In this document: positions 1 to 41,579 of the stretch, in pieces
Position numbering within the stretch: position 1 is the stretch's first letter
How the letters are laid out: every line of letters begins with the position of its first letter
Assembly: GCA_053919585.1 (NCBI GenBank)
Contig: CM132823.1
Source of the DNA: Euprymna scolopes
Taxonomy: Eukaryota
Strand: one strand, 5' to 3'
DNA: 64,000 nt
Made by a program: the position numbers and the translations under genes
The notes under the pieces: generated by a model
What the model saw: the letters and a program-made list of their open reading frames with translations, nothing else
Database searches by the model: none
Told to the model about the DNA's origin: nothing

Positions 1-3000
1 CCTGATGAAGGAAAACAATGCTCAGGAGATATTGTAACTTGATGCAGGAAAACAATTATCAGGAGATATTTTTACTTGATGAAGGAACACAATGTTCAGG
101 AGATATTTTAATTTGATGAAGGAAAACAATGCTCAGGAGATAATTGAACTTAGAAGAAGGAAAACAATGCTCAGGAGATATTTGAACTTGATGAAAGAAA
201 AACAATGCTCAGGAGATATTTAACTTGATGAAGGAAAACAATGCTCAGGAGGTATTTTAGCATGCTGAAGGAAAACAATGCTCTGGAAATATTTAAACTT
301 GATGAAGGAAAACAATGCTCAGAAAATATTTAAACTTGATGAAAGAAAAAAATGCACAGGGGATATTTGAACTTGATGAACGAAAATAATTCTCAGGAGA
401 TATTTGAACTTGATGAACAAAAACAATGCTCAGGAGATATTTGTACTCGATGCAGGAAAACAATAATCAGGATCTATTTTAACATGATGAAAGAAAATAA
501 TTCTCAGGAGATATTTAAACTTGATGAAGGAAGACATTGCTCACGAGATATTGGAACCTGATTGTGGAAGAAATAATCAGGAGATATTTAAACTTTATGA
601 AGGAAAGCAATGCTCATGAGATATTTGAACTTGATGAAAGAAAGCAATGCGTAGGAGATATTTATACTTGATGAAGGAAAACAATGCTCAGGAAATATTT
701 GAACTTGAGGAAGGAAAACAATGCTCAGGAGATATTTAAACTTCCAGAAGGAAAACAATGATCAGGAGATATTTTAACTTGATAAAGGGAAACAATGCCC
801 ATTAGATATTTTAACTTGATGAAGGAAAACAATGCTCAGGAGGTATTTTAACTCGAGTGAGGAAAACAATGATCAGGAGATATTTGAATTTGATTAAAGA
901 GAACATTTCTCAGGAGATATTTTGCCTTGATAAAGGAAAATAATTCTTAGGAGATATTTTTACTTGATGCAGGTAAACAATGATCAGAGGATATTTTAAC
1001 TTGATGAAGGAAAACAATGTTCAGGAGATATGTGAATTTGATGAAGGAAAACAATGCTCAGTAGATATTTTACTTGATGAAAGAAAACAATGCTCTTGAA
1101 ATATTTTCACTTGATGAAGGAAAACAATGCTCAGCAAATATTTAAACTTGATGAAAGAATATAATGCTCAGGAGATATTTAAACTTGATGAAGGAAAACA
1201 ATTGTCAGGAGATATTTTAACTTGATGAAGGAAAACAATGTCCATTAGATATTGTAAATTGATGAAGGAAGACAATGCTCAGGAGATATTTTTACTTGAT
1301 GAAGGAAAACAATGTTCAGGAGATATTTTAACTTGATAAAGGAAAACAATGCTCAGGAAAGATTTTAACTTGATGAAGGAAATCAATGCCCATGAGATAT
1401 TTGAACTTAATGAAGGAAAACAATGCTCAGGAGATATTTTAACTCGAGTAAGGAAAACAATGATCAGGAGATATTTGAACTTGATTAAAGACAACATTTC
1501 GCAGGAGATATTTTAACTTGATGAAGGAAAATAATCGTCATGAAATATTTTCACTTGATGAAGGAAAACAATGCTTAGGAGATATTTTACCTTGATGAAG
1601 GAAAACAATGCTCAGGAGATATTTGAACCTGATGAAGGAAAACAATGCTCAGGAAATATTTTATCTTGATGCAGGAAAACAATGATCAGGAGATATTTTA
1701 ACTTGATGAAAAAAACAATGTTCAGGAGATATTTGAATTTGATGAAGGAAAACAATGCTCAGGAAATATTTCAACTTGTAGAAGGCCAACAATGCTCAGG
1801 AGATATGTGAACTTGTTGAAGGAAAACAATGCTCAGGATATATTGGAACTTGATGAAAGAAAACAATTCTCAGGATATATGTTTACTTGATGAAGGAAAA
1901 CAATGTTAAGGAGATATTTAAACTTCATGAAGGAAAACAATGCTTAGGAAATATTTTAACTTGATGAAGGAAAACAATGCTTAGGAAATAGTTTAACTTC
2001 ATGAAGGGAAACAATGCCTATTAGATATTTGAACTTGATGAAGGAAAACAATATTCAGGAGATATTTGAACTCGAGTGAAGAAAACAATGATCAGGAGAT
2101 ATTTGAACTGTATTAAAGAAAACATTTCTGCGGAGATATTTTAACTTGATGAAGGAAAATAATGCTCAGGAGATATTTTAAATTGATAAAGAAAAACAAT
2201 GCTCAGGAGATATTTTAACTTGATGAAGGAAACCAATGCTCATGAGATATTGGAACCTGATGAAGGAAAACAATGCTCAGGAGATATTGTAACTTGATGC
2301 AGGAAAACAAAAATCAGGAGATATTTTTACTTGATGAAGAAAAACAATGTTCAGGAGATATTTTAATTTGATGAAGGAAAACAATGCTCAGGAAATATTT
2401 GAACTTGATGAAGGAAAACAATGCTCAGGAGATATTTTACTTGATAAAGGAAAACAATGCTCAGGAGATATTTTTGCTTGATGAAGGAAAACAATGCTCT
2501 GGAAATATTTAAACTTGTAAAGGAAAACAATGCTCAGAAAATATTAAAAGTTGATGAAAGAAAACAATGCTCAGGAGATATTTTAACTTGATGAACGAAA
2601 ATAATGCTCAGGGGATATTTAACTTGATGAAGGAAAACAATGCTCAGGAGGTATTTTAGCTTGATGAAGGAAAACAATGCTCTGGAAATATTTAAACTTG
2701 ATGAAGGAAAACAATGCTCAGAAAATATTTAAACTTGATGAAAGAAAACAATGCACAGGGGATATTTGAACTTGATGAACGAAAATAATTCTCAGGAGAT
2801 ATTTGAACTTGATGAACAAAAACAATGCTCAGGAGATATTTGTACTCGATGCAGGAAAACAATAATCAGGATATATTTTAACATGATGAAAGAAAATAAT
2901 TCTCAGGAGATATTTAAACTTGATGAAGGAAGACATTGCTCACGAGATATTGGAACCTGATTGTGGAAGAAATAATACGGAGATATTTAAACTTTATGAA

Positions 3001-6000
3001 GGAAAGCAATGCTCATGAGATATTTGAACTTGATGAAAGAAAGCAATGCGTAGGAGATATTTTAACTTGATGAAGGAAAACAATGCTCAGAAAATATTTG
3101 AACTTGAGGAAGGAAAACAATGCTCAGGAGATATTTAAACTTCCAGAAGGAAAACAATGCTCAGGAGATATTTTAAATTGATAAAGAAAAACAATGCTCA
3201 GGAGATATTTTAACTTGATGAAGGAAACCAATGCTCATGAGATATTGGAACCTGATGAAGGAAAACAATGCTCAGGAGATATTGTAACTTGATGCAGGAA
3301 AACAAAAATCAGGAGATATTTTTACTTGATGAAGAAAAACAATGTTCAGGAGATATTTTAATTTGATGAAGAAAAACAATGCTCAGGAGATAATTGAACT
3401 TGATGAAGGAAAACAATGCTCAGGAAATATTTGAACTTGATGAAGGAAAACAATGCTCAGGAGATATTTTACTTGATAAAGGAAAACAATGCTCAGGAGA
3501 TATTTTTGCTTGATGAAGGAAAACAATGCTCTGGAAATATTTAAACTTGTAAAGGAAAACAATGCTCAGAAAATATTAAAAGTTGATGAAAGAAAACAAT
3601 GCTCAGGAGATATTTTAACGTGATGAACGAAAATAATGCTCAGGGGATATTTGAACTCGATGCAGGAAAACAATCATCAGGATATATTTTAACTTGATGA
3701 AAGAAAATAATTCTCAGGAGATATTTGAACCTGATTGTGGAAGAAATAATCAGGAGATATTCGAACTTTATGAATGAAACTAATGCTCATGAGATATTTA
3801 AACTTGATGAAAGAAAGCAATGCTTAGGAGATATTTATACTTGCTGAAGGAAAACAATGCTCAGGAAATATTTGAACTTGAGGAAGGAAAACAATGTTCA
3901 GGAGATATTTAAACTTCCTGAAGGAAAACAATTATCAGGATATATTTTAACTTGATGAATCGAAACCATGCCCATTAGATATTTTAACTGGATGAAGGAA
4001 AACAATGCTCAGGAGGTATTTGAATTTGATTAAAGAGAACATTTTTCAGGAGATATTTTGACTTGATAAAGGAAAATAATGCTTAGGAGATATTTTAAAT
4101 TGATGAAGGAAAACAATGCTCAGGAGATATTTTAAATTGATGAAAGAAAACAATGCTCAGGAAATATTTTAACTTGATGCAGGAATACAATGATCAAAAG
4201 ATATTTGAACTTGATAAAGGAAAACAATGTTCAGGAGATATGTGAATTTGATGAAGAAAAACAATGCTCAGGAGATATATGAACTTGATGAAGGCATACA
4301 ATGCTCAGGAGATATTTTTACTTGATGAAGGAAAACAATGTTCAGGAGATATTTAAACTTGATAAAGGAAAACAATGCTCAGGAAAGATGTTAACTTGAT
4401 GAAGGAAATCAATGCCCATGAGATATTTGAACTTGATTAAAGAAAACAATGCTCAGGAGATATTTTAACTCGAGTAAGGAAAACAATGATCAGGAGATAT
4501 TTGAACTTGATTAAAGACAACATTTCTCAGGAGATATTTTAACTTGATGAAGGAAAATAATGGTCAGGAGATATTTTAACTTGATGAAGGAAAACAATGC
4601 TCAGGAGATATTTTAACTTGATGAAGGAAAACAATGCTCAGGAGATATTTCAACCTGATGAAGGAAAACAATTCTCAGGATATATTTTAACTTGATGCAG
4701 GAAAACTATGCTCAGGAGATATTTTAACTTGATTAAGGAAAACAATGTTCAGGAGATATTTGAATTTGATGAAGGAAAACAATGCTCAGGAAATATTTCA
4801 ACTTGATGAGGGCCAACAATTCTCAGGAGATATTTGAACTTGATGAAGGAAAACAATGCTCAGGTGATATTTGAACTTGATGAAGGAAAACAATGCTCAG
4901 GAGATATTTGAACTTGATAAAGGAAAACAATGATCAGGAGATATTTGAACATTGTGAAGGAAAGCAATGCTCAGGATATATTGAAACTTGATGAAAGAAA
5001 ACAATGCTCAGGGTATATTTTTACTTGATGAAGGAAAAAAATGTTCAGGAGATATTTAAACTTGATGAAGGAAAACAATTCTCAGGAAATATTTTAACTT
5101 GATGAAGGAAAACAATGCTTAGGAAATATTTTAACTTGATGAAGGGAAACAATGCTCAGGAGATATTTGAACTCGAGTGAGGAAAACAATGATCAGGAGA
5201 TATTTTAACTGTATAAAATAAAACATTTCTGAGGAGATATTTTAACTTGATGAAGGAAAAAAATGCTCAGGAGATATTTTAAATTGATGAAGGAAAACAA
5301 TGCTCAGGAGATATTTGAACTTTATGAAGGAAACCAATGATCAGAAGATATTGGAACCTGATGAAGGAAAACAATGCTCAGGAGATATTGTAACTTGATG
5401 CAGGAAAACAATGATCAGGAGATATTTTTACCTGATGAAGGAAAACAATGTTCAGGAGATATTTGAATTTAATGAAGGAAAAAAATGCTCAGGAGATAAT
5501 TGAACTTGATGAAGGAAAACAATGCTCAGGAGATATTTGAACTTTGTGAAGGAAAACAATGCTCAGGAGATATTTAACTTGATGAAGGAAAACAATGCTC
5601 AGGAGATATTTTAGCTTTATGAAGGAAAACAATGCTCCGGAAATATTTAAACTTTATGAAGGAAAACAATGCTCAGAAAATATTTAAACTTGATGGAAGA
5701 AAACAATGCTCAGGAGATATTTGTAACTTGATGAAAGAAAATAATGCTCAGGAGATATTTTAACTTGATGAACGAAAACAATGTTCAGGAGATATTTGAA
5801 CTCGATGGAGGAAATCAATGATCAGGATATATTTTAACTTGATGAAAGAAAATAATTCTCAGGAGATATTTGAACTTGATGAAGGAAAAGATTGCTCACG
5901 AGATATTTTAACCTGATTGTGGTAGAAATAATCAGGAGATATTTAACTTGATGAAGGAAAACAATTCTCAGGAGATATTTGAACTTGATGAGGGAAAATA

Positions 6001-7980
6001 ATCGTCAGGAAATATTTTAACTTGATTCAGGAAAACAATGTTCAGAAGATATTTGAACTTGATTAAGGAAAACAATGCTCAGGACATATTTGAACTTGAG
6101 GAAGGAAAATAATTCTCAGGAGATATTTAAACTTCCTGAAGGAAAACAATTCTCAGGAGATATTTTAACTTGATGAAGGAAAACAATGCTCAGGAGATAT
6201 TTGAACTTGATGAAGGAAAGCAATGCTCAGGAGATATTTAAACTTGCTAAGGAAAACAATGCTCAGAAAATATTTTAGCTTGATGAAGGGAAACAATGCC
6301 CATTAGATATTTTAACTTGATGAAAGAAAACAACGCTCAGGAGGTATTTGAACTCGAGTGAGGAAATCAATGATCAGGAGATATTTTAATTTGATGAAAG
6401 AGAACATTTCTCAGGAGATATTTTAACTTGATAAAGGAAAATAATGCTCAGGAGATATTTTAAATTGATGAAGGAAAACAATGCTCAGGAGATATTTTCA
6501 ATTGATTAAGCAAAACAATGCTCAGGAGATATTTTAAATTGATGAAAGAAAACAATGCTCAGGAAATATTTTAACTTGATGCAGGAAAACAATGATCAGG
6601 AGATATTTTAACTTGATGAAGGAAAACAATGTTCAGGAGATATGTGAATTTAATGAAGGCATACAATGCTCAGGAGATATTTCAACTTGATGAAGGAAAA
6701 CAATGCTCAGGAGATATTTTAACTTGATGAAGGAAAACAATGCTCAGAAAATATTTAAACTTGATGAATGAAAACAATGCTCAGGAGATATTTTAACTCG
6801 ATGGAGGAAAACAATTATCAAGAGATATTTGAACTTGATGAAAGAAAAAAATTCTCAGGAGATATTTGAACTTGATGAAGGTAAACATTGCTCACGAGAT
6901 ATTTTAATCTGATGGTTGAAGAAATGCTCAGGAGATATATCAACTTTCTGAAGGAAAGCAATGCTCAGGAGATATTTTAACTTGATGAAAGAAAGCAATG
7001 CTTAGGAGATATGTAAACTTGATGGGGGAAAACAATTCTCAGGAGATATTTGAACTTGATGAAGGAAAACAATGCTTAGGAAATATTTGAACTTCATTAA
7101 GGAAAACAATGCTCAGGAGATATTTTAGCTGGATGAAGGAAAACAATGCTCAGGAGATATTTTTACTTGATGAAGGAAAGCAATATTCAGGAGATATTTT
7201 AACTTTATAAAGGAAAACAATACTCAGGAAATGTTTTAATTTGATGAAGGAAACAATGCCAATGAGATATTTGAACTTGATGAAGGAAAACAATGCTCAG
7301 GAGATAGTTTAACTCGAGTAAGGAAAACAATGATCAGGAGATATTGGAACGTGATTAAAGAAAACATTTCTCAGGATATATTTTAACCTGATTAAGGAAA
7401 ATAATGTTCAGGAGATATTTTAACTTGATGAAGGAAAACAATGCTTAGGAGATATTTTAACTTGATGAAGGAAAACAATGCTCAGCAGATATTTGAACCT
7501 GATGAAGGAAAACAATGCTCAGGAAATATTTTAACTTGATGCAGGAAAACAATGATCAGGAGATATTTTAACTTGATAAAGGAAAACAATGTTCAGGAGA
7601 TATTTGAATTGGATGGAGGAAAACAATGCTCAGGAAATATTTCAACTTGATGAAGGCCAACAATGCTAAGGTGATATTTGAACTTTATGAAGGAAAACAA
7701 TGCTCAGGAGATATTTGAACTTGATGAAAGAAAACAATGCTCAGGAGGTATTAAAACTTGATGAATGAAAACAATTTTCATGAGATATTTTAACTTGATG
7801 AAGGAAAACAATGTTAAGGAGGTATTTGAACTTGATGAAGGAAAACAATGCTCAGGAGATATTTGAACTTGATGAAGGAAAACAATGCTCAGGAGATATT
7901 TCAACTTGATGAAGGAAAACAATGCTCAGGAGGTATTTGAACTTGATGAAGGAAAACAATGCTCAGGAGATATTTCCACT
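1..7980. repeat. 37-bp satellite array (about 215 units), consensus CTTGATGAAGGAAAACAATGCTCAGGAGATATTT(G/T)AA
   Basis: Continuous 37-nt periodicity from the window start to an abrupt end near 7980. ORFs 352, 1279, 2751 and 7704 are translations of the repeat. Confidence 0.98.
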
Positions 7981-8292
7981 TATGTTTAAGCTCGTAACAA
8001 TTTATGCCACTATACGTGTCACAACTACAACAGTGGAAAGAACATTCTCTAACTCAAGCTGGTTTAGATAAAGCTGTGCAATCCGTACATTGAGGAGTGG
8101 TTATCTCATATATTATTGCTAACAATTGAAAAGAATATCAAAATCAACAACAGTGAAGTTATGGGCATATTTAAAGAAGTGGCATAGAGAATGCTTCTTT
8201 TATAAATATAAAATAAGATCTGGTTAATAGCATATTGTATTATGCATATGGATTGATTTTCTTGCAGCCATGTATAAATATTAAATAAATAA

Positions 8293-9527
8293 ATATTTAG
8301 TGTGCATTAATTTGAATATCATTGAGGCTTCACTCCAAAATGAGGTAATAAAAAACTTGTAATCGAGATGACAGAAAAGTCGAATTCTGAGAACCAAACT
8401 GAACAGGTCGGAATTTACAATGACGTTTGCATGCTAACTAGAATACATTTTTTTAATTGTAAGCTATTTCGGACGGAAATATGAAGTCGATGCGACCAAG
8501 ACGAAAGGGGAATTTTTGAAAATTGAAAGTATTGAAAAAGGGAGATTAAACGAGTTGCGTTGAACTTTAAAAATTGAAAGCATCAATAGATGGAAATATT
8601 AAAATGATTCGTGTCAAACATAGAAAATTTAAAGGGTCAAGAAATGGAAGATTGAAATGTGATTCGTGTCAGACTTTGAATCGTCATCTTATAATAGTGT
8701 ATTAGGATTCGATTGAATTTTTGTGTTTGAAAAGCTAAAAGTGTCTAGCAATGTTTGAGAAACTGGTATTCTCTAATAGTGTTTGAGAAGCTAGTAGCGT
8801 CCAGCAGTGTTTTAGAAGCTAGTAGTGTCTAGAAAAATTTGAGAAGCTAGTAGTATCTTACTGTAAAAAATTTGAGAAGCTAGTAGTATCTTACTGTATT
8901 TGAAGGGCTAGTAGTGTTTAGCAATGTTTGAGAAACTGGTAGTGCCTAACAGTGTTTGAGAGGCTAGTAGAGAGTAACAGTGTTTGAGTGGCTAATAATG
9001 TGTGGTGGTTTGGATACTAGTAGTGTCTAGTGGTGTTTGGGATACTAATAGTGTCTAGTGGTGTTTGGGATACTTGTAGTGTCTAGTGGTGTTTGGGATA
9101 ATAGTAGTGTCTAGTGGTGTTTGGGATACTAGTAGTGTCTAGTGGTGTTTGAGAAGCTAATAATCTTTAGCAGTGATTGAGAGGCTAGCAGAGCCTCGTG
9201 TTGTTTGAAAAGCTAGCAGAGCCTAGCATTGTTTTAAAAGCTAGCAGATTCTAGCAGTATTTGTGAGGTTAGCAGAGTCTAACGGTGTTGGAAGTTGATG
9301 TGATTGCCAATCATGGCATGGGGTTATGAGGTTATCTTTAAGGACTAGAGGGTAATGTAGTTTGACATGCATTAATTTGCATATCAATGAGGCTTTGCCC
9401 CCAAAATGACGTAATAAATAAACTGAAATCGAGATGACAGGAGAATCGAGTTCTGAGAACCGTACTGAACAGGTTGGAATTTATAATGCCGTTTGAATAC
9501 CGACTACAATACATTTCTTTTCAATTA
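8293..9527 (+). mobile_element. Non-autonomous TRIM-like LTR element
   Basis: Diverged direct repeats of about 170 bp at ~8293-8461 and ~9356-9527 (gcattaatttg..atcgagatgacag..ttctgagaacc..ctgaacagg..aataca). AGCTATTTCGG follows the first repeat (8462-8472). A purine-rich tract precedes the TGTAG start of the second repeat. No ORF. Outer boundaries approximate. Confidence 0.7.
8735..9290. repeat. 28-bp minisatellite (agtagtgtctagtggtgtttgggatact and variants) inside the TRIM-like element
   Basis: Tandem periodicity, best conserved at 9019-9150. Confidence 0.9.
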
Positions 9528-9719
9528 TATTTTTCTTTAAATAAATCGCCACAGTTCTGCTGATAATCAGTACAACACACTTTATGTTCGTTACTATATT
9601 TTGCCCTGTTTTTCGCTTTAACATTTGCCCTGAAAAAGTTTTCTGTGCGTCACTGTTGAGGACACGGGTTGCATGGAGAAAAATGATGTGACAAAGATGA
9701 TGTAAATGATGTGACAAAG

Positions 9720-9996
9720 ATATGATGGATGTGTAAATGATGTCTAAAGACAGACTTAGATCTGATGAATTTAGAGAAAGATTAAATTTGGATAGGAAAA
9801 TGCATGCTAAACAGTAGGCTTCTATGGTATGATCATGTTTATAGAATGGATAAGAGTTCTTTGGTCAGTAGACGTAAAAACATTGAGATAGCAAAGTCAA
9901 CCGAAAGGGTAAGGTCAAGGAAAACATGGGAGGAAATGAAAAGGATGGACTTAGTTTGAAAGGGGTTATTGTTGTTTTTGTTGGTGTTGTCATTTT

Positions 9997-10036
<40 letters not shown>

Positions 10037-10037
10037 G
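9720..10037 (+). mobile_element. RTE-like LINE 3' fragment followed by (TTG)n microsatellite
   Basis: Degenerate translation LxWYxHVxRM...RxRxRKTWxE, typical of the RTE-type C-terminus. (TTG)n at ~9999-10037. Confidence 0.55.
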
Positions 10038-10077
10038 CTATAACAGTATTCTTCCAAAACATAAAAAGAAAACTTAC

Positions 10078-10279
10078 CTGATGTCCAGTTAAAAGAAAAT
10101 CTCTCTTCAGTCACATTTTTGGTTGTATAAAATTTCACAAAGACAAAGTTGTTTATACTATAAAACTGGTTTGATTCCGAGTGAATCGGTCGTCCAATGA
10201 TAGAATGGTCGGATGCACCGCTTCCTCCGCTCCAGATTTCTAAATAGTCATTCGCCATGTTCGCTTTGCTCAGATTAAA
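10078..10279 (-). CDS. Host gene exon: C-terminal half of CUB domain (FNLSKANMANDYLEIWSGG...FYSINNFVFVKFYTT...FSFNWTS)
   Basis: Acceptor ttttag, donor GTAAGT, 202 nt, phase 0 to 1. CUB motifs DYLEI and VKF..F..W. Ends in a donor, so the gene continues leftward. Confidence 0.9.
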
Positions 10280-10881
10280 CTAAAAACAGAAAAATTAATG
10301 ATGAAACGAATTCCTATATTTTTGTATAATGTTATCCCCATTGGTTTTGTATTACACTATTTTCTTTCTTTACTCGTTTTTTTTTTGTAATATTATTTCG
10401 TTTCTTTTTCATGTAATTCGCTCCAGACAAGGCATTAAGCCACTTGATGTAAGGAGCTAACAAAATGCTACTTCAAGTTCAAAAACCTACCAACGATAAG
10501 TGTTTGAATAGATTCTGACACAAAAAATAGTAATTCTTCCCGCTTTGTCAGAAAAATCGCTCATGGAATTTAAGAATCAAGACAAAATAAAGGTTATGCA
10601 GTTGTTCAAAGTAAACCCAGGATCACCTTTTCATGTAAAAGCTATACTCTTTCTTAACTGGTTCTTGTATTACATTATCCTCTTTCTTTACAGGTACCCA
10701 AACTGTGAAAGATACTTTAGCAAAAATAAAGAAAAATAAAAGAAGCAAAGTTGTTTTTTTAGCTTACAATTTATTTCTAGTGCAATGCCAAAAGTCCTTG
10801 ATATACTCTTACAGCTTTAAAAGCTTTCAAATATATTGAAAAAAATTTTTTTTTTCTTTAAAGATGATGCTAATGCCTTAC

Positions 10882-10991
10882 AGATACAATCACCTCCTTA
10901 GCTGAATTCTGCGGGGAGCAAAAGTCAGAACGTCCTTTCACTTTGATCATCAAGTATGACTGATCTTTTTCTCTCTCCTCTCTCAAAAAGT
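10882..10991 (-). CDS. Candidate alternative exon (xFLREEREKDQSYLMIKVKGRSDFCSPQNSAKEVIVS)
   Basis: T-rich tract plus ttgcag acceptor, GTAAGG donor, open frame, phase 1 to 0 (same phases as exon 15756-15883). No recognisable domain. Confidence 0.25.
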
Positions 10992-12489
10992 CTGCAACTT
11001 TAAAAAAAATAGTACTCAATCAGCATACCACAAAATAAAAACAATGATATGCTTATACTTTTAATCTTATCTCAACTATGAAAGTATCATAACAATCACA
11101 GTCATATTCCAAATATGACGTCTATCTTGGACTCCTGATTTTAATCTTATTGTTACAATATTTTGGCATAATGGAACAGCGGTTATTTACTTGCTTCCAA
11201 CCACAACAAAATGTGACACAAGCCCAGAAGGTGTGAAGATTCAATTCAGTGTCCCTAAAGAAGGAGCACTCTGACCTCGTAAAAATTGCCTGGATAACCC
11301 CTCCAACCAAAAGCTAGGTGACAAGGCCTAATATGGTGGACTTCTTCAGGGCGGTATACCTCAGTCCAACATGCAATGGGTCATGTCAATGGCCTAGCAC
11401 ATGTCGGGCTGATTTTTGAGAACGAATCCTTGAAGTAACAAGTAGACCACTTTCACTCAATAAAATAGTGGAAGGTTATGACCCCAAAGATTCGGACAAT
11501 TACATTTATAACCAGGGGCTGTAAGAACAAACCAATCAGATATCAGAATCGCTTTATAATATACTGAATCTCTTGGAATTCTTCAGTTATAGTTTTCCAT
11601 CTTGTAACAAAAAAAGAACAAATGTTTGCTGATCTTGACTGGTTTATATTAACTTTTTACCTGGAATTCTTTACAATTCAAAGCTCGTTTGACTATTGAT
11701 GCTTCTAGTTTTTGTTTAAAACAACTATATTTAAACTACACTTGCATCCTTACAAAACGGTTGATTGATCTAAATGGCATTTTTTATCACTAAACTCGCA
11801 CATTGAATAGACCCATCTTTTTTTAGATGCATTACGAACTTTCATAAGAGGTACTGTCTGCTTCACTATAAAATAATAGGATGATATTCATTCAATTGTC
11901 GACTGATAAAATGTAGAAATTATATTCGAAGCTAAGCGCTGAAAGTTGAACAGGAAGCGACAGCTTTTGAAGAGAAGAAATAACAACAGTGTATATTAAT
12001 TTAACAATTTTACTTAGTCAAGTAATAAAAAATAGTACACAATAGAAAAGAGTGGATGTATATAATTAGGGTTTGCAAATACATGTTACTGCAAGAACAT
12101 ATGATGAAGACTGTTTAGATGTGCACACGTTTTCTCCAACAACTCTTTCTGTCATGGTTTTCATTATAATGCAGCCACCATTGTATTCTTTCTAAAATTT
12201 TATTTGAAAGAAATTGTGCTTTTATTGTTTTCAATTGCATCCATGATGAACAATAATAAGAATCGATAATTGAACACAAGTAATTTGAGATGAAATTGAA
12301 AGGAAATTTAAATTGTGCCATGGAATTTCTATTAAAATGTATCATCATTAAAATTAATTTGAATTTTCTCATTGTTACCGTATCGATTTCTATAATAAAC
12401 CACCGCTCCCTTTTTTATATATAAATAGATAGAATTTATTGAAAAGAACTTTAACGTTACAGACTGATTAATTGATTAGCACCTCGCCC

Positions 12490-13260
12490 CGAAAAACGGC
12501 TTCTTATAAAAAATGCAAGAATAAGTTTTAAAAATACAAGTTTCATTTGTTCATTTCACATCAATGAACATATTTTAAAACATTTTAGAAACACATCTGT
12601 TCTGGAGCATACCTCCAAGAACAAGCAAAAGAACAAATAGGGTGCAGAAAAGTGTGCTTAGGACCTGTTGCTGATTAATAAGACCATACTTGTTGACTGT
12701 AGGAAGAAGTTGATGAACCTAAGTATAGCTTCGATTGATTACCAAAAGATATATGATAACACTACTGGGGAGCCTTGATAATTTATGAGATCCTTCCAGT
12801 AATCAAGGAAACCATGGATGTACATATAAAAATGTGGCAAACAACAGTGGCATTAGACCACACTAACAGAACTATAAAAAATCTCTAACGTCAAGATCAG
12901 AAGGAATCTCCCAAAAGAATAGTCTATCTCCTCTGCTCTTCTGTTTGGCGATAGATGCGTTAAGCAAGTTACCCAATAAAAACTGGAGTACCTACAATCT
13001 GAGTTAGAGCCGCCAACAAGACTCAAATAAAAGAGTCAACCACTTCAAGTATGACTTCAAGCCAATTCAGATGCTGACTTAATTTGACTTTTGCAGGTAG
13101 TGCATAACTTCTCCAGAGATATTGGAATGAAATGTGGTTTGGACAAATGTGCCAATGGATCCATCAGAGCTGGCAAAAAGGCCCAAAAAGCAAACACAAC
13201 TTGATGAAAATACTGACATCAAGGACGTATGAGAGCAAGAAAAATACAAATACCTTGTGG
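12490..13260 (+). mobile_element. Decayed R4/Dong-like non-LTR retrotransposon RT fragment
   Basis: Broken motifs EQxGCRK, DLLLINK, IDYQKxYD, SLSPLLFCLA, DIGMKxGLDKCA. Confidence 0.7.
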
Positions 13261-14359
13261 GTTCATACCGTAACTTAATGTTATTAGTTTATAATTGATT
13301 ATGATTCACTGGCGAGAAAGGAATATCTGATACACTAAGTGTTCCATTTGGTGAAAATATGTGCATTTCTAGCAGATTTTGTCAAAAGAGATAGCCTTTG
13401 ACCTCACCTCGCTTTAATCACGGTAGCTTCACTGGGTCGATTTCAGTTTGCAGCCAGGCTATGATGACACATACTTATGTAACCTTCATCAAAATTCATA
13501 CAAAAATCCTAAATTCGAGAGAATATTTTGTGGACATCTTCTCGATGTTGTTCTTTGGGTTTATTTTGTATTAGTGATAGAACGATTGATAAAATGGAAA
13601 CAAAACAAAAACAAAAAAAATGGCAGTGTTAAACCGTTCTCTTGTTGGTACAACACACGAGAGTCTTTTTTTCCTTTCTTTCCTCTACTTGCAACAAATC
13701 CTCGTGTATTCGATATTATCTTCCACTGTTCGTTCTCGTTCTAAGTTGTTCAACAAAAGACTCCACTCAACTCCCATGCTTAAGAATTCGTCTCATTTGC
13801 AGTTACAAATTGTTTACATATGCAAATTAATGACATACGTTCACCAATGAACGACCTACAAAATTATGCTTGTCTTTTCTTTTCTACATTTTCTACTGGC
13901 ATTGTACAGGCTAAGCAAACACGAAGTCGTTTGCAAGAATGATGATTTCTATTACACGATTCAATATTTTTCCCGATTCCGATACAATTACCGATTCTGA
14001 TTTTTTTTACAAATCTAAATATTTAACCATGAAGTTGTAATTTCCTCCTGATTATCGTAGAAACACACGTTAAATGTGCATATATTTTCATAAACCAAAA
14101 AGCACACTTGTGGGGGAGAGGATCTATAGATTTTAGCTTTAGTTGTAGTTTAAAATCAATGCATATTTATTATTTTATTATTATTACTACGAGCAGTGAA
14201 AGATTTGAATTTTAAGCAAAATCAAATAAATCAAAGAAAAAAGATAATTAAAGGAATCGTTTTTGGCATTGGAATATAGGCACACATTTTTCCGATTTCG
14301 ATACCCTAAATGTTTCGATTTTACTGATTCCCGATTCCGATTTCGATTAATCGTCAGCG

Positions 14360-15273
14360 AAACTTTTGCCCAAAAACTGATTTAAAAACTCGCTGCATGT
14401 CTGAGTACCATTTATGTAAAATTTCAAATGTTTAGACCCAAAATTGGCTGAATAGTTTGCTAGAGACCGCAGATGTAAAATTTTTTAAACTTTGACCCTT
14501 TAGCAGCCAAATTTTTGGCCACAAACAAATTAAAAAGCTTGCACTATGTCTGAATTTATGTAAAATTTCAAATATTTAGACTAAAAATTGACTGAGTAAT
14601 TTGGTAGAGACCGCATAGATCAAGTTTTTAAAACTTTGACACCAATTTTGACCCCTTAGCATTTATGGTTTTGGGCTCAAATCAAATTATAAAGTTTGAT
14701 CCATGTCCAAGTAATCTACATCTAAAATTTCAAATGTTTATACCTAAAATTGGCGGAGTAGTTTGGTAGAGTTCTCAAAGTTCAAATCGTTGAACTTTGA
14801 CCCTTTAACAACCAAATTTATGGCCGAAAGTCGACCAAAAAGATTTTCCCTAATCTTAATACTCCTTATGTCAAATCTCGAGTCTGTAGACTGAAAATTA
14901 ATAGAGTTGTTATATACTTGCTATATAATAAGCTTCGTTAACTACCATAGAAAAAAGTTGGTAGAGATCGCAGGCGTCAATTTTTGAAAACTTTTAACCC
15001 CTTAACATTTATTATTTTTTATTTTTTTCAAGTGTTTAGATCAAAAATTGGCGGAGGAGTTTGGTAGAGTTCTCAAAGGTCAAATCGTTGAACTTTGACC
15101 CCTTAACAGCAAAACTTCTGACCGAAAACCGAGTAAAAAGATTTTCCCAAATCTCACTACTCTTTATGTCAAATCTCCAGTCTCTAGACTGAAAATTGAA
15201 ATAGTTATTTGCTAGGGAAGTGTACACAGACAGACAAACATACAAACATTTTCACTTTTATAGATATATAGAT
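14360..15273. repeat. About 150-bp diverged tandem repeats, probably a Helentron-associated (HINE/DINE-1-like) non-autonomous element
   Basis: About 6 copies of the aaaattggc..agtttggtagag..actttgaccc unit. Ends in (ACAG/ACAA)n plus ctttTATAGATATATAGAT. Confidence 0.6.
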
Positions 15274-15755
15274 TTCGGTAATCCTGTGTATTCATTCTTG
15301 GTTAAGAGTATCAAGCGACCTTTTCTCTAATCCTCTACAGATTATACCTATATATAACTGTCTCCTCTCTTTCAGAACTCACCTCATATGGTTTTAGTCG
15401 TGTGCTAATCTTTTACCAATAAATTGAATTGAATAAAAATATAGGGTTCCCATACCTCCAATTGAGGTTAACTAAATAGAGACAAATTATAGATAAAGAA
15501 AATGATTCATAGTTAAGTTTATCGATTGGGTTCTCTTCTCTTTTTTGGCTTGACATATATGAATGATTTTGACACCTGTCTGAGAAAAGTGTTTTGACTA
15601 GATTCAAAAAAGCAAGCAGAATCTATATCTTCCCCGTCGGGTCAGGAAATCGGTATATCAAAATTCAATTGTTTGTGAGGTTATTTCTTAGGCCAAGCAT
15701 ACACATACATTTTTTATTTTTAGCTTTTCAGAATAAGAAAAAAAATGCCACTTAC

Positions 15756-15883
15756 CTCTAATTTAATTCTGGACCCTATTGAAGCCTCTATGGTTATCAT
15801 GCAGTTAACATTGTCATTAACTTTTTCAGTATCTGCGGTAAATTCACCAACGGCAGTATTGTAATAGTGGTTGCACTTTTGAT
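15756..15883 (-). CDS. Host gene exon: N-terminal half of CUB domain (NQKCNHYYNTAVGEFTADTEKVNDNVNCMITIEASIGSRIKLE)
   Basis: Acceptor ctgcag, donor GTAAGT, 128 nt, phase 1 to 0. Two Cys and the C-x-x-x-I-x-A-x-x-G-x-x-I-x-L-x-F CUB pattern. Joins in frame to 10279. Confidence 0.9.
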
Positions 15884-16829
15884 CTGCAGTAAATAAATTT
15901 GAAAACCATTACAAATAAAACACAAAAAAGTATAAGGAAAGAATGCAAAAATGTGTTTGTGTTCGTTTGCTTAACATAATTATGAGTTAATCACACCTTG
16001 AGAATGAGAAGTTGAATGAAACTATTAATTATGGAAGGACAGTATTAACCACACTAAAGAGTGGGTTATACCGTCTAGAAAGTGCATATTAGTAGTACAT
16101 TTTCTCACATGAGAATTGTACTGCACCATTATAACTATAATCCGACATCATAATGAGTTGTCAAGTTTATCCTTTTAATATATAACACAAAATTATTCCA
16201 TTTCTTTGGACCAAGTTGTATCGCATTTTTTTTATTTATTCTTTTTTTCTTATTTAGATTCACAGAAAAAAGACACTTTGTTTTTAAGATGTGCGAGGTT
16301 ACTGATAACTAGGGACCAGATTTAGGTGGAGGAGGGACTAAGTGGGGAGTTATGTAGCAAGATGTTTTTCACATTACATTAAAATTTTTGCACGTTGGTA
16401 TACTCAGGAACACCGAGCAGAGTGGGAATTCGAAAGACTATCAGTTCAAGGAAATTTGTACTTGAGCAGAAAGCCTTACGACATCAAGCGATTTCCACAG
16501 AGAAGGGATTTAACTGGTTGCTTAGAGATATTTACGTGGAACGACATCAGTGCATCAAATGTGTTGCATAACATTCCATTGAAGTATTTGTAAAACAATC
16601 ACAGCACATTAATATTTGTGAGTTTTTTTTTAATTAAGACTTGGATCGTTTAGACAATTGTTCCCATCTTGAGTGTTATGTTCACAACGTTTCGGCCGAT
16701 ACAAATTCTGACTTTCTTCAAGTGTATTTTGAAAATGGTTCTTATTGGTGAATGGTGGAAAGAATGCTTTTGTTTTTCCAACAGATCATAATTGTTAGAA
16801 TTCAAAATATGTGATATATTTATTAGATG

Positions 16830-17270
16830 GAAAGTCATTTCCAGTTTTAAATAAATTTAGGTTTAATATTATTTTTCTGAATTATTTAAGATTCAAAGAT
16901 TTTAGTGAAGAGAGAGTAGACTGGTGGGGTGATACTTTCCAGGGTTAGTTCTTTCAGCGGAGTTCTTAAGCATTGGTATCACAGGAGTAATTTTTCAGCT
17001 ATCAAGGAAGCAATATTTGGTAAAGCATTTGGTGAAGAGTTTGGAGAGGACAGAGGCCAGCTTCTCAAAGCATTTCTTTATGACAGGGATCACATAAGGC
17101 CCACATGATGCCAAAGGTTTTATTATCTTTTGGACATGGGAAAGAATGATGTCCAAGTCATTAAGTGTAGTTTCAGCCTGCAATGGGAAATTTGGGAGGG
17201 AGTGGCTTGTAGAGTTTAAGGTGGTGAACCATTTGGACAAGTAGTTCAGCCTTATCAATTGCTGTGCCAC
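16830..17270 (-). mobile_element. CR1-like LINE fragment (start of RT)
   Basis: ORF 16995-17300 has CGPxVIPV..KKC..KLASVLSKLFTKC...CF, homologous to ORF 38263-38691. A further fragment of the same type lies at ~18480-18900 (RKPHSSQWFT). Confidence 0.65.
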
Positions 17271-17328
17271 CGACATTGTTATGATTGAACAGCAGGACAA
17301 TTGCTAATTGCCTATTATTCACACACTA

Positions 17329-18402
17329 CGAGGGGCGTGCAATAAGTAATGCCCTGACCCACTTCCAGTTGTCTGATCTAGCTGAAATTTTGCATGTGCA
17401 ATGATCTATATCTCTACGGGTTATGTGGCAAATTACAGCTCTGAACTAATTGTGGTTTCTGTTTTACAGGTGTTTGAACTGAGTCAGGTGTGAAATGGAG
17501 CCTGTTGAATGTCGAGCAGTGATCCGGTTTTTGTATTTGAAAGTCGCACACCACAGGAGACTTTTGATGAAATGAAAGAAACTTATGGTGATAATGCCCC
17601 ATCATATGACCTTGTAAAATGCTGGCATCGTGAATTCAAACATGGCCGGAAGTCTGTGGAAACAGCTTCCAGACCTGGTCGCCCTCCCCCTTCTGCCATT
17701 GATGAGGCATCTGTCCGTCAAGTTGAGGCTGCCATTTTGGAAGATCGGCGCATTACTATTCGCTAAATAGCCCAAGATGTCAAAATTAGTACAGGGTCTG
17801 TGGAAACTATCATTCATGACCATTTGCATATGCATAAGGTGTCTTCCAGGTGGATTCCCAGGTTGCTCACACCATTCCAGAAGTGAGAACATGTCGAGTG
17901 CTCGAGGATGAAATTGGAGATGTGCCAAGAAGATGAGTCCTAGTTTTTCAAAAGACTGATTCCACAGGATGAAACCTGGGTCCATCACTATGATCCAGAG
18001 ATCAAAGCCCAGTCAATGCAGTGGAAGCACTTGGACTCACCACCTCCAAAGAAGGCAAGGGTGTAGCCCTTCGCTGGCAAGGTCATGCTCACAGTCTTCT
18101 GGGACCAGGACGGAGTAGTGACGACAGATTTCCTGGTAAAGGGAACCACAATTACAGTTTTGAATTGAAGTTGTTTTTGAAAGGAAAGCGTTTCCCAGAT
18201 GATGCAGCCTTGATTTCTGAAGTCACATCGTGGTTGGAGGACCAACCTGGGGTGTTCTACAAAAACGGTATCCAGAGCTGCATCAAACGATGGAAGAAAT
18301 GCATAACTCTGGGTGTAGAGAAAGACTAATAACTGTGCCAAGTCTCGTTGCTCTACTGCTATGGGAAGTGGGTCAGGGGCATTACTTATTGCACGCCCCT
18401 CG
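17329..18402 (+). mobile_element. Mariner transposon (irritans-like TIR), defective with an internal deletion
   Basis: TIRs cgaggggcgtgcaataagtaatgccc..gacccacttcc at both ends, with TA duplications at 17327-8 and 18403-4. Transposase motifs RPGRP, WIPRLL, QDETWVHHYDPE, KVMLTVFWD. Stops and frameshifts; the later catalytic segment is missing. Confidence 0.95.
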
Positions 18403-19132
18403 TATTATAGATTTTCTAGAAATTTCTAACTCCTAATTTTTGTGACTCAATGTGTTTTCTGGTTATATCGGTATACCTACACTTCACGGCTGAATTTGTG
18501 AAATGCTTTCTACTTCAAAATAATAGCTAGAGGGGCCGAAGTGAACCATTGAGAAGAGTGAGGCTTTCTAAAGGATTTTCGCATAGGGATATATGCTTCA
18601 AAGCCTTCTTTGACCGATTCAGTTACTTCATTTTCACACTGATCAGCAGGGAGAGAAAAATATTTGAAACACATCTTCCTATATTGTCTACATTTTATCT
18701 TCATCTGAAATCATCCAATCTAAGTTTGTCTAATACTCACATTACAAATCCATCATATTATTTTTATATCAGTTTTCTCTCCAAGCAACGCATGTCATCA
18801 ACCTTCACTTGTTATTTCACTTCCATACACCACTACACTGCTCACACATATCTGATAAACTCCTCTCTTAGTCGACAATGGTAACTCTCTGCTGATTAGT
18901 AATGAACTTACTCCAATCCATTCTTAATTCTTGCCATCACACCAGCATCAATTAATCCTTGTGCTCCATTGTTATCACTAAGGTAATAAACCTTCTGAAC
19001 AATCTTAATAGATTCATCATCCAAACATATTTTCTCCACATCTGAGTTTTCATCCATCATCATTGTCTTACGCTGATTATCATCTCTCAACTTGTAATTG
19101 CACTGCAATAAAAGATAATACAAATGACTCAC

Positions 19133-19228
19133 TGTTATTTCGTTCGTCTGAATTATCTCCGCAGTCATTTTGCCCATCATCCACAAAACTGAGTGGAACA
19201 CATTTGCCATTATTGCAAGGAAAGGATT
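19133..19228 (-). CDS. Host gene exon: LDL-receptor class A repeat (KSFPCNNGKCVPLSFVDDGQNDCGDNSDERNN)
   Basis: Acceptor tttcag, donor GTGAGT, 96 nt, phase 1 to 1. DCxDxSDE motif. Confidence 0.93.
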
Positions 19229-19599
19229 CTGAAAAACGAAAAAGAAAAAATAAGTCAACCGGTTTAATACAATAACGTGACACTTTTCTTTGTACAGTTC
19301 TTTGAACATCGTAACAAAATACAAAGTAAAAAGAAAGTAAATATTTTTTTAACCTTTTTTCTACCCAAATCTGTGGCCATTAAAACTATTGGAGATATCT
19401 ATGAGATATCTATTCATTAAAATCTATATGAGATATATCTATATAATATCTTTATCTTTATAAAGATGAGATAGTTTCATTGGGATAAGATAGTTTTTTC
19501 TGTTTGTTTTTTGTTTTTGTGTTTTTCATTTATTGATGGCCAAAGGCAATTCAAGGATTAGGACTTAATGAGTGTTAGGATGTCGGTGAGACTGGGATA

Positions 19600-25719: not shown

Positions 25720-26150
25720 GTATTGACTTCACTCCTAAACTAATTAACCGATCATTATGAATTTTAAGGATGTGTATATAATTATATATTTCTATTATTG
25801 GATTCACTCCTTAACTAATTAACCGATCATTATCAATTTAAATTATGTGTTTATGTTTATATATTTCTACGTATTAGATTCACTCCTAAACTAATTAACT
25901 GATCATTATTAATTTTAAAGATGTGTGTATGTGTATATATACGTATTGATTGGATTCACTCCTAAACTAATTAACCAATCCTTATGAATTTTAATTATGT
26001 GTATATGTTTATATATTTCTATTATTGGATTCACTCATGAACTAATTTGCCCATTATTATGAATGTTTAGTATATGTTTATATATTTGTATTTATTGGAT
26101 TCACTCACTCCTAAACTAATTAAACGATCATTATGAATATTAATTATGTG
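25720..26150. repeat. About 75-bp minisatellite, 6 copies (ttggattcactcctaaactaattaaccgatcattatgaatttt...)
   Basis: Visible tandem periodicity. Confidence 0.9.
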
Positions 26151-26749
26151 TAAAAACAAACTCTCACCTGTGACACACGGAAAAATTAGCACAACAGAAA
26201 ATTATGTAAAACTATCGAGTAGTTCCATCTTAGAAATGACGTACTTGTACATTATTGTACCCAAGAAGTAAAGTAATTGTTCGGTATAGTACTCATATGA
26301 AAAAACAAAGAAAATGCATAAAAATTATAAAAATGGAAAATCATGTAATATATTCGGGTAGTATGACTTTTAAATGGGAAATAAGGTGCTTCTTTACTAT
26401 AGAACTCTAATCAAACTATCATCTGTGATATACAGAAAAATTAGCACAACAGAAAATTATGTAAAATATTTTAAATATGTGTTGTACATACCCACCCTAG
26501 GTAAGTATTTTTTTTCCATAAACGTGCTGTAAATTTCCTGTCCTAGGGGAGGCACAATTATTTCATAATATAATACTTGTCCTAGGATAGGTAAAATATT
26601 CTTTTGCTCAAGATGACAAATGATACATAGACATCAAAAATTCCTCTATCCTAAGAATAACAGGTATGTCCAAAATTTTTCTCATTGACATTGGGTGGCC
26701 TTGTTAATAATTAATAAAATCAGATTCTTCTTAGCTAAAAAAAAAAAAC

Positions 26750-28490: not shown

Positions 28491-30263
28491 AAAATTAAGG
28501 ATCGATTCCAAGTATTTAATGTAATTTAAAAAGCAAATAATATGCCTGACAACCTCTAACCTTCAATCTATTTCCATAATGAAACATTTTCTTTGTGCTT
28601 TCTATAACGATTTATACAGGGGTTTCTGTGTATTTATCTTTTATTTTTAACTTTCCCGTTCGAGACGTTTTTTAAGATCCTGTTTTCTTTTGTAGCTTCA
28701 CTGAGTTCACATTATTTTATATGAATACAAAGATTAGTGCAAACACTGATGAAGGATTTTTTTTCATCATTTTTGATGGAGATGTACATTTGTGATAAAT
28801 AATTGTTGGGTCACATTAATTATATAAATATTACCATGATTTAAGTATTGAGTTTCAACCTTGTGTCATACATGAATGAAAATTTCTAATTATATCTTGT
28901 TTGTTGCTTGTTTTTGTATGTGGCTTTTTTCTTGTGATCCTTTCAGAGCGAGGGAATGTTACCTGCAAATAATTTCTCTCATACCTCAAAAAAATGACAG
29001 TCAAGATAAAACTGTTGAAAGACAGAAAAGATGTATTTGGCTTGATCTTTCTCCAAATCATTGACTAGTAGGGTGGCAGGGAGAGAGAGAAAGAGAGACA
29101 GAGATAGATTGATAATTATCATTTAATTATATTTCACCATAGAATTTTAAAACATGCTCACATGTTTAATGCTACCAAGAAACTTCAGACTTCTCTCACT
29201 CACTCACTCACTCACTCACTCACTCTTTGATCCATGTGATGTCATATGCATTTCTATCAATTCCCATAACCCTCAGTAATTCTAACTTCGAGTTCAGTAA
29301 GTTGACCCAAATGAATTTCCATTTCCTTGTATTCTTAACTGTCTTACATACTAATGTGTTTACTCGCTCAATATTTACATAAAACACAATAAGGAAGTAC
29401 AAGTTTTGTGATGCACCTACATTAGAAAAAAAATTAATTGACTGATCAGAATAGGTTTGCGTCACTTTTATGCCACCTTACGAAAATTAAAATTAAAATC
29501 AAAATGTGACAGATTGGGGCCCTACAATAGCGAATGAGTAGGGTTAACTAGGTAAAAGTCTAGAAACTTTATTCAACTTTTGATCAAAATTTGTTCATGA
29601 TTTTGGTTCAAGGAAGTGTCTAAAATCTAATGCTTAGTTTTAAAGGGGCCTTAAGAAGAAAGAAGGGTTGATGAAACCTTTTTAATTGGTGTGTTACATG
29701 CAGAGCAAGTATAGGAAGACAGAGGAAATTTATATAAACTGATTTTGGCTTCAAATTACTGAACGTGTGGTGTTCCTAACGAGCTGACGACTTTTCTTAC
29801 TCATTCATGACACATACATTTCTATCAATTCCCACAGTGCCAATAATTCTAATCTCGAGCTCAGTAAGTTGATCAGAATCCATTGCATGATTTTGATTCT
29901 AGAAAGTTAAAAAGAAAATTCAGCGAACCTTGTCTTTTTGGTGTCTAATGACTATGGATAAAATTCAATGCAAATTTGAAATATTTGAATATCCAAATGG
30001 AATAGGATGTTGTAATGCATATTATGCAACTTAAAAATCCTTTAAAATAGTCAAAAGAAACTAAACTTAATATTTATTATTTCATGTCTAATACATATTG
30101 TTAAAATTCCCCCCAAATCTGGAAAGTAACAGAATTTTCATAAAGGGCTTCCATTCCGTTTTTACTCAAATTTGCATTTAAAAAAATCAAACTAAATATA
30201 TCCCTCATTGTCTCAATTTTACTTTTCCATTGCTTTTGCATTTTTCTTTCTTTTCTAGCTTAC

Positions 30264-30330
30264 CTTTAAAAGATACCGGCAGCATGTTTATGATAGTTGG
30301 GTACTTTTACAAAACGGTATTGATATTGAG
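30264..30330 (-). pseudogene. Truncated pseudo-exon copy of lectin exon 32220-32301
   Basis: Same donor context (ctagcttacc). Reads ..FVKVPNYHKHAAGIF* versus FSVNVSNNHKDAASICK. Has a stop codon and no acceptor. Confidence 0.75.
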
Positions 30331-40862: not shown

Positions 40863-41561
40863 TCATGGTTTGGCGTCTGTTTTGCCAACTGGAATATTGC
40901 CGTGTCTTTCTATGGCGGAAGAAGATTTCTATTTTCGAATAACGTGTGCACGTGTGCCTATCTATTTATAGAATAAAAGTCATTACGTTCAAATGTGTAT
41001 ATATATTAAATTTACATATTTTTTTTAAAAGTCCTAACTTTTTTTTTTAACTCCTAACTTTATCTACTCTAATAGAGAAAATTATTCCTGGCATTTTGTT
41101 TTTTTTTATCGCTAGTTTATTTGTAGCATGGCTGACCAGTGTTTTGCCTGTTTCAATAGTCGCGAAGGGGGGGGTGACGAATAAGACAGGAAAGTAGAGA
41201 CAAATAAATACATATACATAAATAAAACAAGAAAAACAAGTTTAAACAAGGTAACATGAAAAACATTTGTTAGGATGAATTTTAAAATACTTAACGTCTA
41301 TTTGCCGTCATGGTTTGGCGTCTGTTTTGCCAACTGGAATATTGCCGTGTCTTTCTAGAGCAAAAGAAGATTCCTATTTCCGGATAACTTGTGCACGTGT
41401 GCCTATCTATTTATAGAATAAAAGTCGTTACGTTCAAATGTGTAAATATATTAAATTTACATTTTTTTTTAAAGTCCCAACTTTTTTTTTTAAGTCCTAA
41501 CTTTATTTACTCTAATAGAGAAAATTATTCCTGGCATTTTGTTTTTTTTTATCGCTAGTTT
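40863..41561. repeat. Direct repeat of about 255 bp (40863-41118 and 41308-41561)
   Basis: Near-identical blocks starting tcatggtttggcgtctgttttgcc and ending atcgctagttt. Confidence 0.9.
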
Positions 41562-41579
41562 ACTTTCAAAGCAGCACAT

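Follow-up and report, generated by a model that had tools for sequence, protein, structure and literature searches.

The element at positions 8291-9529 of the window (the whole stretch of 64,000 nucleotides of Euprymna scolopes DNA analysed here, G000:C41:26164001-26228000) belongs to a dispersed, non-coding TRIM family and has decayed. We put at roughly 0.7 the probability that this family is a deletion derivative of a compact Gypsy element, was moved by the enzymes of that lineage and was primed from the first 12 bases of the host tRNA-Phe. Genome searches covered the 5.9-Gb, 925-contig assembly to which the window belongs.

Anatomy of the window copy

The termini of the LTRs were set by comparing 40 dispersed copies of the repeat, which have sharp ends, TGTAG and TTTAATTATA (TGTAG...AATTATA). 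The window copy lies on the plus strand, with LTRs of ~170-175 bp each. Its 5′ LTR (~8291-8461) has lost its first ~12 bases to erosion, is recognisable from 8303 and terminates in AATTGTA, while the 3′ LTR (9356-9529) runs from TGTAG to AATTATA, so that the terminus is TA, not CA. The alignable direct repeats (8303-8454 and 9368-9520) are 83% identical over 153 alignment columns and enclose an internal domain of 894 bp (256-1331 bp in most copies). This agrees with the sequence-only reading, which had described two repeats of ~170 bp around ~900 bp lacking an ORF: no stop-free frame of at least 120 aa occurs within the element, and the 20 window frames searched with Pfam, none of them inside the TRIM, yielded nothing but retroelement domains and a pair of weak, unrelated matches.

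The primer-binding site (PBS), AGCTATTTCGGA (8462-8473), follows the 5′ LTR with a spacer of 0 and is complementary to nt 1-12 of tRNA-Phe(GAA) at 11 of 12 positions. Its first 11 bases, AGCTATTTCGG (8462-8472), had already been noted as following the first repeat; base 12 is A here versus C in intact copies. Downstream lie a non-coding leader (8474-8723), which is also found in other copies and contains short internal repeats of 51-55 bp, and the 28-bp minisatellite seen in the first reading (8724-9281, 19.9 copies, 74% matches). Because of this array, the element totals 1.24 kb and exceeds the strict TRIM limit of <1 kb. A relic of the pol C-terminus (9304-9333) reads LPIMAWGYEV here, LPLVTRDYEM in copy L027 and PIWTRDYEM in the coding elements L135 and L136. 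The purine tract that had been reported before the second repeat is present as a decayed polypurine tract (PPT; 9340-9355), worn to AAGGACTAGAGGGTAA with purines at 13 of 16 positions; other copies carry AAGGATCAGGGGGGAA-type tracts.

An Rfam search of 8200-9700 at E≤1 gave no match, so the tRNA- or 5S-derived LTR sequence that marks TRIMp3 elements was not recognised, although a strongly decayed promoter could escape such a search. The 3′ LTR (9356-9529) also carries the words ATTTGCAT, TGACGTAA, AGATGG and TTCTGAGAA, which we take to resemble octamer, ATF/CRE, YY1 and STAT sites, respectively.

Dispersal and age of the family

A 20-mer from the LTR, searched through the whole genome with up to two mismatches, gave 233 matches, a lower bound for the family, versus 11 for the reversed control. 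The family includes two-LTR copies and solo LTRs without PBS or PPT (e.g. L009, L011 and L016). A PBS after the 5′ LTR and a PPT before the 3′ LTR recur in the family, both being worn in the window copy. LTRs begin with TG in most copies and end in TA in many and in CA in others, where TG..CA ends had been expected.

For TSDs, 35 two-LTR copies were measured, of which four C41 duplicates were left out. With automatically set boundaries, an exact 5-bp TSD flanks 6 of the remaining 31 copies versus 1 of 930 mismatched flank pairs, and allowing one mismatch raises this to 9 of 31 versus 18 of 930. Three further copies (L020, L190 and L091) show a TSD by eye at shifted boundaries. An exact TSD is absent at automatic boundaries from 25 of the 31 copies, including the window copy, where the predicted TSD was looked for and not found; the prediction therefore holds for the family and fails at this locus.

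The copies closest to the window TRIM, 88-96% alike, lie on the same contig at C41:32.02, 30.40 and 29.35 Mb and have flanks in common with it over many kb, and older C41 copies at 26.60 and 28.69 Mb (~75%) share its 3′ flank. Because of these common flanks, we regard the C41 copies as segmental duplicates of one insertion. Together with the missing TSD, they could suggest a local duplication, or a repeat carried by a Helitron- or MITE-type element instead of an LTR element. The chance of this is close to negligible, as copies occur in dozens of contigs, amid flanks that are unrelated to one another, and combine sharp TG...TA/CA ends with a PBS, a PPT, TSDs of 5 bp and a relic of pol. The outcome named at the outset as fatal to a TRIM-like element, a single-locus duplication with neither dispersed copies nor TSDs, is ruled out.

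The two LTRs of a copy are 71.5-89.8% identical (median 83.4%), and with pairs only 72-90% alike the family is old and probably dead. A copy's own 3′ LTR is the best match of its 5′ LTR in 8 of 18 copies (~1 expected), and first or second in 13 of 18. Tandem LTR-internal-LTR chains occur at C45:67.37 Mb, C18:113.07 Mb and C46:71.23 Mb, the last with LTR motifs 226 bp apart. A copy on C7 with LTRs 9.8 kb apart was considered as an autonomous form and rejected, since it has no gag or pol match inside.

Coding relatives and parentage

Several of the 20 loci fetched at length are coding elements of 4.1-4.6 kb, with LTR pairs 98-100% alike, 5-bp TSDs and gag and pol frames. In L128, Pfam finds the domain order PR-RT-DUF7047-RH-IN after gag, which is the Gypsy order; the marker domain DUF7047 (PF23088) is present in L128, L136 and L143. 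Named homologs come from Trichuris, Trichinella, Macrobrachium, Petrolisthes and Amphibalanus.

Judged by its sequence, the TRIM tail is descended from the pol end of the coding Gypsy family L135/L136, which lies outside the window. The last 70 internal bases of the TRIM match L135/L136 (E 9e-7), and 22 TRIM 3′ ends score on average 45-46 against these two versus 14-30 against 12 other coding copies. The tail reads as a relic of their pol end, PIWTRDYEM, with the RDYEM motif in common, and TRIM and L135/L136 both start with TGTAGT. The TRIM LTR, however, did not align to the LTRs of the coding families tested (scores 15-23), and because the LTR bodies do not align with those of L135/L136, the direct parent would be an older relative that has not turned up. 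The common PBS, PPT and TSD length and the pol relic make it likely that the TRIM was moved in trans by enzymes of this Gypsy lineage.

The window itself holds two members of the lineage, both on the minus strand. The first is a broken coding element (45036-49261) with pieces of gag, protease, RT, RNase H and integrase, LTR pieces at 49204-49261 and 45036-45093 and a PBS at 49192-49203. The second (41558-42536) is truncated to gag and protease, and its PBS (42525-42536) has one mismatch. The 45-49-kb element was rejected as direct parent, because its LTR ends differ and the RT tree places it on the other of the two main branches, where it is sister to L129 with a long end branch owing to its frameshifts. 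The proposed Gypsy partner is therefore right as to lineage and wrong as to family, since the TRIM 3′ end points to L135/L136 on the opposite branch.

Another coding family, family B (TGTAGG...TTTAATTATA), has LTRs that likewise end in TA. Its apparent match as TRIM partner was set aside as a match by construction (the search pattern included the LTR end), and in the one copy scored, L083, the 3′ end reaches 20.9 against the TRIM; family B is a possible helper. L142, L143, L103, L140, L170 and L171 are internally deleted coding derivatives, with LTR pairs 91-100% alike where measured, and are possible TRIMs in formation. L142 and L143 had been considered as gene captures, which was rejected because pol pieces remain after the deletions. 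An inverted repeat, TGATC..GATCA, lies just 5′ of the PPT in the TRIM and in most coding families (3′ ends of L126-L143, L083 and L087), and in some of the latter also encodes the pol end CDHQIRGEC.

A primer-binding site that matches a tRNA 5′ end

The host tRNA-Phe(GAA) starts with GCCGAAATAGCT, and its 5′ 25-mer has 641 exact copies in the genome. Some of these copies lie in tandem arrays that repeat every 219 bp and in looser clusters (C28:101.70-101.72, C18:100.1-100.3 and C18:105.4-105.5 Mb). In intact copies, the PBS is the exact complement of nt 1-12 of this tRNA and lies directly against the LTR, bearing out at the sequence level the claimed tRNA-Phe 5′-end PBS. The canonical TRIM PBS, which matches a tRNA 3′ end, looks different: no 3′-end-type PBS was found at the junction (compared with tRNA-Phe only), and no TGG start was seen.

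In the window alone, the PBS 11-mer has three matches (one mismatch allowed), a number reached by 6 of 100 shuffles and thus not significant. Genome-wide, ACAAGCTATTTCGGC occurs 3214 times versus 0 for the control, and 30 of these loci fall into 12 LTR clusters by their upstream sequence; the PBS is common to many unrelated LTR families. The window occurrences had been counted as independent, and they instead reflect one inherited trait of the lineage. With ten PBS bases fixed, base 11 is kept in 28 of 30 loci and base 12 in 29, versus 21 for base 13. In all 11 elements tested, nt 1-12 of tRNA-Phe form the longest tRNA match across the LTR junction, with no spacer; as these 11 were chosen for an intact site, the unbiased tests weigh more.

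Relatives fetched by Gag alignment alone provide such a test. They comprise 54 metagenome loci, of which seven without a gag start were left out and many of the remaining 47 are redundant. In 42 of the 47 there is a 12-mer that fits AGCTAT-NNN-GGC or nearly so, in 39 of these directly after CA, and 33 of 47 have a PBS within two mismatches of that of the host genome versus 0 of 46 control windows. The types are CTAGGC (24, and six near), CGCGGC (4), TTCGGC (3), CACGGC (2), CACGCG (2) and CATGGC (1). The samples that hold L197 are from annelids, and the annelid variant, GCCTAGATAGCT, the commonest of all, occurs once in the host genome.

The fixed PBS bases correspond to tRNA positions 1-2 and 7-12 and the variable ones to positions 4-6, and tRNA acceptor stems vary at the positions that match these variable bases. 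ARAGORN called no tRNA on the 54 loci, and the Gag alignment had no match in viral contigs. On viral contigs, whose tRNAs are not those of the element hosts, the complement of the commonest variant heads tRNA-Phe in 11 of 11 tRNAs called (25 matches), and those of two further variants stand at the start of tRNA-Thr (10), tRNA-Phe (3) and tRNA-Leu (1; 80 matches). In the RT tree, the families of the host genome, which share a single PBS, are found on both main branches and CGCGGC is also on both, while the CTAGGC group is one clade; as the variants partly follow the tree, host tracking is not cleanly separable from descent.

The 12-mer might instead be another conserved signal, for packaging, dimerisation or as a silencing target, that happens to resemble a tRNA end. 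The match is just 12 bases long, 5′-end priming requires both unwinding and a cut, and no description of it was found in the literature searched. We nevertheless hold this to be very improbable, since the 12-mer occupies the exact place of a PBS where no 3′-end-type site is present (compared with tRNA-Phe; no TGG start), its conservation ends at tRNA base 1, and its fixed and variable bases correspond to tRNA positions 8-12 and 4-6, respectively.

Proposed route of priming

As the PBS matches tRNA nt 1-12, the TRIM and its helpers likely prime from a cut-off front piece of the tRNA. Gag of a coding family would package the TRIM RNA, and nt 1-12 of tRNA-Phe (the 5′ strand of the acceptor stem, U8-A9 and the start of the D-stem) would anneal to the PBS. 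A cut of the tRNA after U12 would then give the primer its 3′-OH. For this cut, the RNase H of the element acting on the 12-bp duplex, as in the cutting of the Tf1 self-primer, seems most likely and is favoured over host nucleases. Plus-strand strong-stop DNA would run off the 5′ end of the tRNA at PBS base 12, which would leave the next bases error-prone, and integrase would make the 5-bp TSDs.

Variation beyond base 12 is consistent with a strong-stop end at that base and is suggestive only. Among 100 listed of the 274 copies of family L134, a hand tally finds position PBS+13 varying in 35 and +14 in 36, versus 0 for +11, 8 for +12 and 1 for +15, and all four main +13/+14 haplotypes are present among the listed copies. 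In the two commonest families this variation is weak, and CpG decay or subfamily structure could contribute to it. Furthermore, 2 of 12 L129-type copies depart from the normal sequence directly after PBS base 12, one of them jumping into pol over a GC microhomology.

A primer made by the host without any cut by the element, be it a tRNA-Phe 5′ fragment shortened to 12 nt or some other RNA that ends in those 12 bases, would fit all of the sequence evidence equally well. The genome offers the 641 exact 25-mers as a source, and 5′ tRFs are a described class in the accessible part of one source (PMC7472051). We consider such a primer unlikely, given that in none of 11 elements does the tRNA match continue beyond nt 12 into the LTR. 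Known short 5′ tRFs, moreover, end in the D-loop at 14-16 nt, not at U12.

The TRIM might also prime itself in the manner of Tf1, from an RNA that starts at a GTCGAGATGGC-type motif near LTR position 77, with the tRNA match as inherited baggage. This motif pairs with 11 PBS bases, including three G-U wobbles. For 21 of 68 distinct TRIM LTRs, the best LTR:PBS duplex is stronger than in shuffles (p≤0.05), the best PBS complement lies at LTR positions 70-89 in 44 of 68, and in L004 the duplex reaches -16.2 kcal/mol versus -18.7 for the tRNA. However, the median over TRIM LTRs is -9.9 kcal/mol, and the 68 LTRs count once, as they have a single common ancestor. Self-complements above shuffles are found in 0 of 8 coding-family LTRs and in 3 of 29 metagenome relatives (two of which are one family), all of which keep the PBS, and the motif overlaps a AAGATGGC word, presumably YY1-like, found in other LTRs of the lineage. 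Self-priming thus appears improbable; the 11-nt wobble complement is kept as its possible basis or as a PBS-masking hairpin.

Beyond priming by the 5′ tRNA piece as such, which we infer from the PBS, a broader reading is distinctly more tentative and, in our estimate, falls somewhat short of even odds. A Gypsy lineage marked by DUF7047, in molluscs, annelids, crustaceans and nematodes, would use its RNase H to cut nt 1-12 from tRNA-Phe in trans, and a TRIM parasite of this lineage would have seeded a satellite of 0 to ~1,500 units. On this broader reading, the PBS would have to track the host tRNA-Phe and would escape silencing by 3′ tRFs.

The 28-bp minisatellite

The element had been suggested as a vehicle for the minisatellite, which is supported more strongly than was proposed. 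Of 345 candidates for the array, 38 were scored, yielding a list of 27 loci outside C41, 24 of which were examined. TRIM LTR sequence adjoins the array in the correct orientation at 22 of these 24; one has an LTR in the opposite orientation and one has none. Because the query was taken from the TRIM, unlinked and more distant arrays may be missed. The anticipated variation in copy number is wide, with 0, 2, 9, 20, 58, 98, 158, 185 and 308 units between the two LTRs of different copies.

The largest arrays also carry parts of the element. On C29, a ~43-kb array (57.38-57.42 Mb) terminates in a TRIM tail and a 41-bp LTR piece, its 5′ LTR being looked for and not found, and a ~18-kb array (62.78 Mb) starts with LTR and leader; chains of LTR and array occur on C45 and C18. 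The 28-bp unit would have expanded after TRIM insertion, by slippage or unequal exchange, into these multi-kb arrays. The family thereby forms a graded series within one genome, from a TRIM-internal minisatellite to a ~43-kb satellite (0 to about 1,500 units).

Neighbourhood of the element

A different satellite, with a 37-bp unit, fills positions 3-7975 (216 copies), runs off the window edge and ends ~315 bp before the TRIM. It was rejected as a relative of the 28-bp repeat because the units differ, and it is duplicated together with the TRIM at C41:32.02, 30.40 and 29.35 Mb. Segmental duplications of at least 10 kb on C41 match window positions 8838-19339 to L189 and 9965-13355 to L188 (95-98% and ~85% alike); no gene that accounts for them was found. 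In one of the duplicates, at C41:30.406 Mb (L184:7161-9899), the 37-bp satellite is abutted by a young coding Gypsy that belongs to the L126 family (its proteins are 97-98% identical) and is absent from the window.

Further along the window, the remains of a non-LTR (LINE) element, including an endonuclease domain, lie at 38263-39889 (minus strand), and frames at 36205-37470 (minus strand) look by eye like a Copia-type gag/pol remnant, with no retroelement match in Pfam. A weak CUB-domain match at 9839-10279 (minus strand; E 0.0026, below the curated cut-off), beside a (GTT)n tract, is probably due to chance. Other tandem or direct repeats (25720-26152, 50366-50633, 40863-41565, 14355-15218 and 28587-31355) comprise a 76-bp unit in 5.8 copies, a perfect 38-bp unit in 7.1 copies, a 260-bp repeat pair that is 93% alike, and some older duplications.

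Comparison with known systems

The accepted primers of LTR elements are a tRNA 3′ end, a tRNA half cut in the anticodon loop, and the element's own 5′ end. The sequence gives good support to the tRNA 5′-end PBS described here, whose use in priming is a proposal and which appears undescribed. No description of tRNA 5′-end priming was found in the literature searched; subscription journals, bioRxiv supplements, Repbase, Dfam and GyDB lay outside its scope. In their accessible parts, PMC12471100, PMC7472051, PMC6947457, PMC4122922 and PMC4402516 do not describe it, and the mollusc and annelid clade surveys PMC6238403 and PMC8556966 never mention PBS, primer or tRNA. The string AGCTAT is absent from the accessible content of PMC13524379 and its seven supplementary files, where a PBS survey uses the last 12 nt of tRNAs, and the exact PBS string turned up, as far as titles tell, in papers on tRNA or RNA methylation. 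As surveys screen tRNA 3′ ends, a 5′-end PBS would explain calls of 'no PBS found'.

Animal TRIMs are known from cestodes, bivalves and insects, with tRNA 3′ ends or anticodon loops as primers (PMC4558846, PMC6934838, PMC10886601). Going by the accessible parts of these papers, ta-TRIM of taeniid cestodes (partner lennie/Saci2; PMC4558846), biv-TRIM (PMC6934838) and Helenus/Ajax (PMC10886601) resemble the present family in their short LTRs and non-coding core, and known animal TRIMs likewise have a PBS and PPT, solo LTRs, tandem chains and a partner inferred from common termini, PBS and TSD length. In contrast, ta-TRIM and animal Helenus are described with a tRNA 3′-end PBS and 4-bp TSDs, where our family has a 5′-end match and 5-bp TSDs, and biv-TRIM without a recognised PBS or partner (PMC6934838). 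By their descriptions, the pol relic and the expanding minisatellite also set the present TRIM apart.

With regard to priming, there are partial parallels. The Tf1 self-primer is 11 nt long, and RNase H acts on the PBS duplex formed by the element's own RNA to make the Tf1/Tj1 cut. In Tf1 and Tj1, as far as the accessible account goes (PMC4600332), the PBS pairs over 11-12 nt with an RNA 5′ end that must be cut to prime, as proposed here. Unlike in Tf1/Tj1, the matching 5′ end is that of a host tRNA in trans, and coding-family LTRs lack a self-complement. Oikopleura Tor elements are Gypsy-type and reportedly take the 5′ part of a spliced-leader RNA as their primer in trans; against this, the primer here would be a tRNA, and the helpers are compact (4.1-4.6 kb) and without env. 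Such priming of Tor is not described in the accessible parts of PMC4402516 and PMC4122922. A cut, 3′-truncated tRNA also primes Copia-type elements and fungal Helenus, according to the part available (PMC10886601), whose sites pair with the anticodon loop, whereas ours pairs with nt 1-12 and its helpers have the Gypsy domain order.

That a TRIM seeded a satellite is real, and of a kind already known: in mouse Ms6-hm (in MaLR) and soybean Gmr9/Ogre, a tandem repeat is likewise carried and dispersed inside an LTR element (PMC6947457, accessible part). Unlike these, as described there, the carrier here is a ~1-kb TRIM, and copies range from 0 to about 1,500 units within one genome. If true, a site for tRNA nt 1-12 across families and hosts would be a fourth priming route, bridging self-priming and tRNA priming, and 5′ tRNA fragments become testable as primers or inhibitors.
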